A DNA stretch of 1,010 nucleotides from Escherichia coli (GTDB lineage Bacteria; Pseudomonadota; Gammaproteobacteria; Enterobacterales; Enterobacteriaceae), in the NCBI RefSeq assembly GCF_003334815.1, contig NZ_QOWO01000110.1; one strand, given 5' to 3'. Below the pieces are notes generated by a model that worked only from the letters and a program-made list of their open reading frames with translations, made no database searches and was not told the DNA's origin. A program made the translations under genes and the position numbers. Shown in pieces: positions 1 through 1,010 of this stretch. Numbering within the stretch: the stretch's first letter is position 1; each line of letters begins with the position of its first letter.

Positions 1-649
1 TTCCACGCAGATTATGCCGCTTCAGTTGCGCCTGATAATCTGCTGAACAGTACTGGCCTCCACGGTCCGTGTGAACGATAACGTTCCGGGGCCTCTTACG
101 CCGCCACAGCGCCATCTGCAGGGCATCGCAGGCCAGTTGCGCCGTCATGCGTGGCGACATTGACCAGCCAATAACGGCACGTGACCACAGGTCAATGACC
201 ACTGCCAGATACAGCCAGCCTTCATCTGTACGTAAGTACGTGATGTCTCCTGCCCACTTCTGGTTCGGGCCACTGGCGTAAAAATCCTGCTCCAACAGAT
301 TTTCTGACACAGGCAGGCCGTGTGCGCGGTAGCTGACCGGGCTGAACTTCCGGGAGGCCTTTGCCCTCAGTCCCTGACGGCGCAGGCTTGCCGCCACGGT
401 TTTTACGTTAAAGGGGTAACCCTGAGCACGCAGTTCATCCGTCAGGCGTGGGGCACCGTAACGCTGTTTTGACCGGGTAAAAGCCGCGAGGACAACGCTG
501 TCGCAGTGTTGGCGGAACTGCTGACGCGTGCTTATCCTTGTCCGCCGCTGACACCACGTATACCAGCCGCTGCGGGCCACCCGGAGCACGCGGCACATTG
601 CTTTGATGCTGAACTCAGCCTGATGTTTTTCAATAAAGACATACTTCAT
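1..649 (-). CDS. insF: IS3 OrfB (InsF), DDE/RNase-H-fold transposase catalytic domain. Partial: the first 216 codons (ATG 649..647 down to 4..2) are in the window and the C-terminal ~72 aa lie beyond position 1.
   Basis: Minus strand, -1 frame relative to orfA, with its ATG overlapping the orfA stop (AUGA, 649..646). Translation begins [216 protein letters not shown]... The first two catalytic aspartates are present with IS3-family spacing: D135 (codon 247..245, WAGDITY) and D195 (codon 67..65, HTDRGGQY). This frame is not listed in the supplied ORF track because it runs off the window edge. Confidence 0.9.
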
Positions 650-945
650 TTCAGGCGCTTCGCGAAGTATGTCGCGGCCTTTTGGAGGATAGCCAGCTCT
701 TCATCCCGTTCTGCCAGCTGGCGTTTGAGACGTGCAATCTCGGTAGACATCTCCAGTTCACGTTCAGAAGACGTCTGCTGATTTTGCTGTTTACTGCGCC
801 AGTTGTAGAGTTGTGATTCATACAGGCTGAGTTCACGGGCTGCGGCAGTAACACCGATGCGTTCAGCAAGCTTCAGGGCTTCACTGCGAAATTCAGGCGA
901 ATGCTGTTTACGGGGTTTTTTACTGGTTGATACTGTTTTTGTCAT
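1..945 (-). CDS. OrfAB transframe transposase: OrfA residues 1-89 fused to the orfB frame by -1 frameshift at 679..683. Partial, with the C-terminus beyond position 1.
   Basis: Inference from the slippery site plus the continuous open -1 frame (…ILQK / [18 protein letters not shown]…), together with the established IS3 expression mechanism. The fusion protein itself is not directly observable from DNA. Confidence 0.7.
646..945 (-). CDS. insE: IS3 OrfA (InsE), 99 aa, DNA-binding regulatory protein and N-terminal part of the OrfAB transposase. Coordinates include the TGA stop at 646..648.
   Basis: Corresponds to the 646..954 minus ORF in the track, with the start placed at ATG 945 (MTKTV...) because of SD spacing and the known IS3 OrfA N-terminus. 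Translation: [99 protein letters not shown]. There is a helix-turn-helix-like region around residues 20-45 and heptad hydrophobics L63/I70/L77/L84, consistent with the leucine-zipper-like segment typical of IS3-family OrfA. Confidence 0.92.
650..678 (-). promoter_or_regulatory. Frameshift-stimulatory RNA structure (stem-loop, possible pseudoknot) just downstream of the slippery site; the boundaries are approximate.
   Basis: mRNA segment GGCCGCGACAUACUUCGCGAAGCGCCUGA. CGCGA (676..672) can pair with UCGCG (665..661) around a 6-nt loop. The segment is GC-rich and contains the perfect 10-bp palindrome CUUCGCGAAG (667..658). The exact fold was not computed and is inferred by eye. Confidence 0.4.
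679..683 (-). promoter_or_regulatory. Programmed -1 ribosomal frameshift slippery site A-AAA-G (mRNA CCAAAAGG); the Lys89 AAG codon of orfA at 681..679 slips to AAA.
   Basis: Seen in sequence: in the orfA frame the codons are CUC-CAA-AAG-GCC (L-Q-K-A), and the -1 frame from G679 is open into orfB (GGC CGC GAC AUA CUU CGC GAA GCG CCU GAA AUG...). Established knowledge: IS3 makes its OrfAB transposase by -1 frameshifting at AAAAG, stimulated by downstream RNA structure. Confidence 0.8.
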
Positions 946-951
946 GTGAGT

Positions 952-957
952 CACCTC
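952..957 (-). promoter_or_regulatory. Shine-Dalgarno sequence (GAGGTG) for orfA.
   Basis: Minus-strand GAGGUG sits 6 nt upstream of the ATG at 945..943 (mRNA ...UCAGAGGUGACUCACAUG). Confidence 0.6.
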
Positions 958-965
958 TGACTGAG

Positions 966-991
966 AGTTTACTCACTTAGCCGCGTGTCCA
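966..991 (-). promoter_or_regulatory. Putative weak orfA promoter inside or abutting IRL: -35-like TGGACA (991..986) and -10-like TAAACT (971..966).
   Basis: Seen in sequence: TGGACA matches TTGACA at 5/6 and TAAACT matches TATAAT at 4/6, but the spacer is only about 14 bp, which is suboptimal. IS3-family transposase promoters are known to be weak and to lie in the left end. Hexamer assignment is speculative. Confidence 0.25.
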
Positions 992-1010
992 CTATTGCTG
1001 GGTAAGATCA
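971..1010 (-). repeat. Left terminal inverted repeat (IRL) of IS3; the inner boundary is approximate.
   Basis: The window ends ...GATCA, i.e. the minus strand begins 5'-TG, the conserved terminal dinucleotide of IS3-family ends. IS3-family inverted repeats are roughly 40 bp (established knowledge). The partner repeat is outside the window, so the extent cannot be confirmed by self-alignment. Confidence 0.6.

Follow-up and report, generated by a model that had tools for sequence, protein, structure and literature searches.

The window, the whole 1,010-nt stretch of Escherichia coli DNA analyzed in the present study, corresponds to the left 80% of a single copy of the insertion sequence IS3, which lies on the minus strand. 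We are practically certain of this assignment, and nothing was found that argues against it. The reverse complement of window positions 1-1010 was identical, base for base, to nt 1-1010 of the 1258 bp of IS3, with 0 substitutions and 0 indels. The element is IS3 itself, beyond mere membership of the family, and is already known and ordinary. The window is a clean negative: it can be masked as IS3 and left out of searches for new systems. IS3 is among the most thoroughly studied transposable elements of E. coli and is of biological importance itself. It both inactivates and activates genes, supplies the homology for the integration of the F plasmid (Hfr formation), and serves as a model for programmed -1 frameshifting; these roles were established decades ago.

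Identity of the window

On its minus strand, the window is string-identical to the first 1010 nt of the complete 1258-bp IS3 copy that E. coli ER1709 carries in its chromosome (locus L001, 1253-2510). Similarly, nt 1-1010 of the F plasmid record NC_002483.1, the numbering of which begins at IS3 nt 1, were 100% identical to the reverse complement of the window. The right edge of the window (base 1010) is exactly IS3 nt 1, and IS3 nt p corresponds to window position 1011-p on the minus strand. The window may thus originate from one end of a record or contig, although identical copies number in the thousands. In many E. coli records, Megablast gave matches that were 100% identical across the full 1010 nt, with five places each in K-12 and BW25113. 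Identical copies are annotated as 'IS3-like element IS3 family transposase, programmed frameshift', and as insE1/insF1 in AP026748.1; this RefSeq/GenBank annotation of identical copies is the basis of the identification as IS3. By the convention of ISfinder, elements with >95% amino acid identity or >90% DNA identity are regarded as the same IS. The identity of the window to annotated IS3 was 100% over 1010 nt, and, therefore, it is the same named element.

IS3 is widespread in this species. Megablast matches to the window were obtained in 4627 of the 5426 complete E. coli genomes, and in 3921 of the 5426 a match spanned at least 80% of the window. The number of places per genome had a median of 3 and a maximum of 16, and places covering at least 80% of the window were present in 4644 records.

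Other members of the IS3 family or group, such as ISEc16 and IS3H, occur in E. coli, Shigella, Klebsiella, and Salmonella, and an invariant frameshift block is common to them; the window may have been derived from one of these elements rather than from IS3. However, the identity over the whole window was 80.1% for ISEc16 and 78.9% for an unnamed chromosomal copy (L005), and IS3H was 87.7% identical over a 241-nt segment at the orfA/orfB junction, whereas the IS3-annotated copies in K-12, BW25113, and F were 100% identical over 1010 nt. These results refute the assignment to another member, to which we attach next to no probability. Since the identity to the K-12-type and F copies was exact and other named elements reached approximately 80% (ISEc16) and 88% (IS3H, junction), we concluded that the window is IS3 itself.

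The earlier note on this DNA had placed every base inside one IS3 copy and expected near-100% identity to the IS3 of E. coli K-12 over the 1010 bp in the reverse orientation. Both statements were borne out by the exact identity in this orientation, without indels. It had also specified what would speak against IS3, namely, a best match to another IS3-family member, or substantial divergence or indels breaking orfA or orfB. The best match was to IS3, and orfA and the portion of orfB in the window were both open.

Ends, coding regions, and completeness of the copy

The features identified in the window are summarized in Table 1.

Table 1. Features of the IS3 copy in the window, listed in the 5' to 3' direction of the element.
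Feature	Window position	IS3 position	Strand	Basis or remark
Left inverted repeat (IRL), starts 5'-TGATCTTACCC	~971..1010		-	ungapped match to the right end of the full copy at 28 of the first 40 positions
Shine-Dalgarno-like GAGGTG	952..957		-	6 nt upstream of the orfA ATG; putative function, from sequence
orfA (insE-type), 99 codons + TGA; helix-turn-helix DNA-binding/regulatory	646..945	66-365	-	ORF listing, translation
5' arm (mRNA) of the perfect 13-nt inverted repeat	823..835	176-188, in orfA	-	repeat search
A_AAG -1 slippery tetramer, in CCUCCAAAAGGCCGC	679..682	329-332	-	CAA AAG in frame 0
Putative frameshift-stimulating H-type pseudoknot	618..673		-	stems predicted from sequence
Putative stem 1	664-673 + 638-647	338-347/364-373	-	predicted
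Putative stem 2	651-656 + 618-623	355-360/388-393	-	predicted
ATGA, orfB ATG over orfA TGA	646..649	362-364 (orfB ATG)	-	sequence
3' arm (mRNA) of the perfect 13-nt inverted repeat	610..622	389-401	-	repeat search
orfB (insF-type), codons 1-216 of 288; HTH_21 and most of the rve (DDE) core	2..649		-	translation

IS3 has imperfect terminal inverted repeats of approximately 40 bp, and elements of the IS3 family have 5'-TG...CA-3' ends and a short target-site duplication (3-4 bp). The left end starts with TGATC, read downward from window position 1010. The full copy in ER1709 is 1258 bp in length, has the ends TGATCC.../...GGTAAGATCA, and is located within an autotransporter gene that it interrupts, with a 3-bp duplication (GAT/GAT) at both sides. 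Beyond the window edge, at IS3 nt 1011-1258, are the right inverted repeat (IRR) and the final 72 codons of orfB, among them that of the catalytic Glu. The earlier note had listed an inverted repeat, orfA, a frameshift site, and orfB. The left inverted repeat, orfA, and the frameshift site are present in the window; however, the right inverted repeat is outside and orfB is incomplete. The note passed over the approximately 20% of the element that lies outside the window as well as the 13-nt inverted repeat, which showed no sign of conserved structure.

The window stops at IS3 nt 1010, as would a truncated or defective remnant that has lost its right end and is no longer a complete, active element. 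Truncated and frameshifted IS3 copies exist, as partial matches and as 'frameshifted' pseudogenes, and the loci L049 and L052 match only residues 1-315. However, the visible part of the present copy carries no mutation relative to intact copies, places covering at least 80% of the window are found in the 4644 records described above, and the cut coincides with the window edge, which is most simply explained as a sampling boundary. We consider a remnant to be unlikely. The incompleteness of orfB in the window is attributable to the window ending there and not to mutation.

Several other IS3-like copies were noted in the course of these comparisons. In E. coli F829 (NZ_OY754443.1; locus L002, 2510-2710), a full IS3 copy is directly followed by a partial 'transposase' fragment that matches the window, giving a match in two pieces. 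This arrangement suggests a tandem or nested left-end remnant of IS3. Three diverged IS3-like copies, L003, L005, and L006, showed 94.7, 78.9, and 98.9% identity to the window, respectively, and are annotated as frameshifted pseudogenes; in L003, the ATG of orfA is changed to AAG. They are decaying copies beside identical, active-looking ones.

Regarding orfA, Pfam HTH_Tnp_1 was detected in residues 12-78 of OrfA (E=1.4e-8). A GTG at 952-954 on the minus strand, three codons upstream of the orfA ATG, lengthens the mechanical ORF to 102 aa. This GTG falls within GAGGTG, and the start in RefSeq is the ATG. The orfB frame is open from IS3 nt 311 and overlaps orfA by 55 nt, with the slippery motif inside the overlap. 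Translational coupling at the ATGA overlap was reportedly described by Sekine et al. in 1994.

In the full protein of an identical copy, Pfam identified HTH_21, rve (E=2.3e-27), and rve_2. The IS3 family is characterized by a DD(35)E triad in an rve (integrase core) domain, with a conserved K/R at the seventh residue after E. The codons for Asp135 (window 245-247) and Asp195 (65-67) of OrfB are both inside the window, while the Glu231 codon is located 41-43 nt past window base 1 and Lys238 is likewise outside. The identical full copy has D-60-D-35-E spacing with Lys at +7, the catalytic residues being assigned by motif. Fusion through A_AAG gives an OrfAB of 387 aa, which agrees with the 1163-nt joined CDS that RefSeq lists for WP_085947771.1. 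Against NCBIfam NF033516 ('IS3 family transposase'; cut-off, 160 bits), the score was 392.7 bits for the full OrfAB of the identical copy and 288.4 bits for the 315-aa fusion encoded by the window. A comparison of OrfAB with PDB sequences revealed no solved relative at E<=0.001.

On the plus strand, a 91-aa ORF (506-781) is located within a 102-codon stop-to-stop stretch (473-778) and may be read as an extra gene. This frame is open in IS3, and is open and even longer in its relatives. However, 21.5% of synonymous-codon shuffles of orfA/orfB reached the same or a greater antisense open length. The frame is codon-complementary to orfB, and stops in it require the rare sense codons TTA, CTA, and TCA; the open stretch, in IS3 and in relatives, is explained by these codon-complement effects. 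Moreover, amino acid identity between IS3 and ISEc16 was 52% for the antisense frame versus 71-75% for the sense frames, and no NCBIfam match to its product was obtained. Based on the synonymous shuffles and on conservation below that of the sense frames, we rejected ORF 506-781 as a gene, for which we see scarcely any chance. This antisense open frame is the only extra ORF in the window, for which the earlier note had listed none.

The claim of the earlier note that the window holds no repeat array or RNA gene was confirmed. In the window, Rfam at E<=1 gave 0 matches (there is no Rfam model for the IS3 frameshift element), and the search for tRNA/tmRNA gave 0. The direct-repeat search of the window gave none, and the only inverted repeat was the 13-nt repeat. 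Among tandem repeats, a single sub-threshold 10-mer was noted (1.9 copies; score, 31; window 113-132), and no meaningful tandem or direct repeats were present.

A promoter scan of the IRL revealed no consensus promoter, in agreement with a reporter assay in which the promoter activity of 150-bp IS3 ends was undetectable (PMC12095673). The terminator scan of the window gave none. A weak sigma-70-like site (TTATCA-16-CATAAT, 9/12) was noted inside orfB at window 38..11 on the minus strand. Chance alone would produce 0.3 such sites in the window, where one was present, and nothing points to a function.

The frameshift region and the 13-nt inverted repeat

The sequence of the window is consistent with a frameshift signal consisting of A_AAG and an H-type pseudoknot, and would allow both to form. 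The pentamer AAAAG occurs once in orfA, at IS3 328-332, and A_AAG was invariant in 27 relatives. The context of the slip site, CCUCCA-AAAG-GCCGC, is identical to the IS3 frameshift cassette quoted in PMC4066793. In that study, A_AA.G proved to be the tetramer most prone to shifting in combination with the IS3 pseudoknot, and the tetramers clearly above background gave frameshifting of 0.26 to 5.6% (PMC4066793).

The spacer between A_AAG and stem 1 is 5 nt (GCCGC). Stem 2 is the sole helix of at least 6 bp made entirely of Watson-Crick pairs between the loop of stem 1 and the next 150 nt. The predicted stems fit published descriptions of the pseudoknot, in which the spacer is 5 nt, the first three pairs comprise two G-C and one A-U, and the 3' half is past the UGA (PMC4066793, PMC6938710). 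Among 12 relatives, stem 1 showed two compensatory changes (A-U to G-C, twice), both in one Pseudomonas element. The pseudoknot region hardly varied among 27 enterobacterial relatives, which makes this set uninformative either way.

We also considered an alternative small hairpin (IS3 335-339/346-350). It showed no compensatory changes, and its first pair was broken in 3 of 12 relatives. Moreover, it cannot form together with stem 1, for which covariation was observed, and we rejected this hairpin.

In the block that begins shortly ahead of the slip site and runs to where stem 1 ends (window ~635-693; IS3 318-376), the relatives are almost invariant at the nucleotide level. However, the relatives sharing this block are only approximately 80-85% identical over IS3 nt 65-450. 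The near-invariance of the block from the slip site to stem 1 is consistent with the constraint of two reading frames plus an RNA structure.

A variant of this region was noted in a distant relative on a plasmid of Pseudomonas sp. CIP-10 (L011, approximately locus nt 157-240). An A_AAA_AAG run is present in place of the A_AAG tetramer, and stem 1 is kept through two compensatory changes. Stem 2 apparently uses a different, nearer 3' partner, with GAGCCTCA pairing with TGAGG(A)CTC when read by eye.

The perfect 13-nt inverted repeat (TGAACTCAGCCTG / CAGGCTGAGTTCA) has arms 200 nt apart, with the frameshift site between them, and 5 nt of the 3' arm also form part of the 3' strand of pseudoknot stem 2. 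The two arms may form a long-range mRNA helix that competes with stem 2 and tunes the OrfAB:OrfA ratio. An arm of at least 13 nt arose in 3 of 1000 synonymous and 5 of 1000 mononucleotide shuffles (0.3-0.5%), and the helix is present in both the MFE and centroid folds of IS3 nt 51-450; the 5-nt overlap with the 3' strand of stem 2 also points to competition. However, pairing in the 27 relatives was 90.9% versus 91.0% with shuffled partners, and 399 of 500 shuffles reached the observed value. The lone double-sided change sits in a degenerate copy, and central mismatches are found in relatives that are intact, ISEc16 among them. Nothing analogous is present in five distant relatives, their best helices being 6-8 bp, which were matched by 18-92% of shuffles. 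In addition, the fold of the whole region is not unusually stable (z = -1.22). Published cassettes, as described, begin a few nt upstream of the slip site and, thus, are without the 5' arm, but still frameshift efficiently (PMC4066793). Collectively, these results make a regulatory helix very improbable.

If it formed, the helix would sequester the 3' strand of stem 2 until a ribosome unwinds it, and the synthesis of OrfAB would then be tied to ribosome traffic on orfA; we regard this scenario as equally doubtful. It would represent a further level of control, as yet undescribed, in IS3 and the elements closest to it, and a small mechanistic detail for a model system of frameshifting. We regard the 13-nt repeat as a coincidence without an explanation, and give a regulatory role a small chance.

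Mechanism and comparison with known elements

The mechanism outlined below is based on established knowledge of the IS3 family (Sekine et al. 1994, 1999, as cited in PMC3299598; PMC4066793; PMC6815119), to which the present study adds the sequence features alone. Most ribosomes translating orfA would stop at its TGA and produce OrfA, a small helix-turn-helix protein. A few per cent would slip back by one base at A_AAG, helped by the downstream pseudoknot, and produce the OrfAB fusion, which is the transposase. OrfAB would then bind the terminal inverted repeats and move the element by copy-out/paste-in through figure-of-eight and circular intermediates, generating 3-bp target duplications. This route, with figure-of-eight and circle intermediates, is described for the family, and IS3 is cited among the examples (PMC3299598, PMC5009743, PMC6815119). 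The low level of frameshifting together with an inhibitory OrfA would keep transposition rare.

The closest known system is the IS3 of E. coli K-12 and the F plasmid (insE/insF; 1258 bp; OrfAB, WP_085947771.1). The IRL, orfA, A_AAG, the pseudoknot sequence, the ATGA, and orfB codons 1-216 are the same, and no difference was found; the window is merely without nt 1011-1258. ISEc16 and IS3H, members of the IS3 group in Enterobacteriaceae, have the same organization, and their frameshift block, CCAAAAGGCCGCGACATACTTCGCGAAGCGCCTGAAATGAAGTATGTC, is identical or nearly so. However, they carry many substitutions in orfA and orfB. ISEc16 has a 12-nt deletion, and IS3H, at approximately 88% over the 241-nt junction, is 86% identical over IS3 nt 65-450.

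IS911, IS2, and IS150 resemble IS3 in having two overlapping ORFs, -1 frameshifting that produces an OrfAB DDE transposase, TG...CA ends, and copy-out/paste-in transposition through a figure-of-eight and a circle (PMC3299598, PMC5009743). In contrast, their slip motifs and stimulators differ from those of IS3. IS911 relies on a heptamer together with an upstream SD and a stem-loop; in IS3, the A_AAG tetramer is combined with a pseudoknot (PMC4066793). These three elements belong to separate subgroups and are too diverged from IS3 for matches at the nucleotide level.
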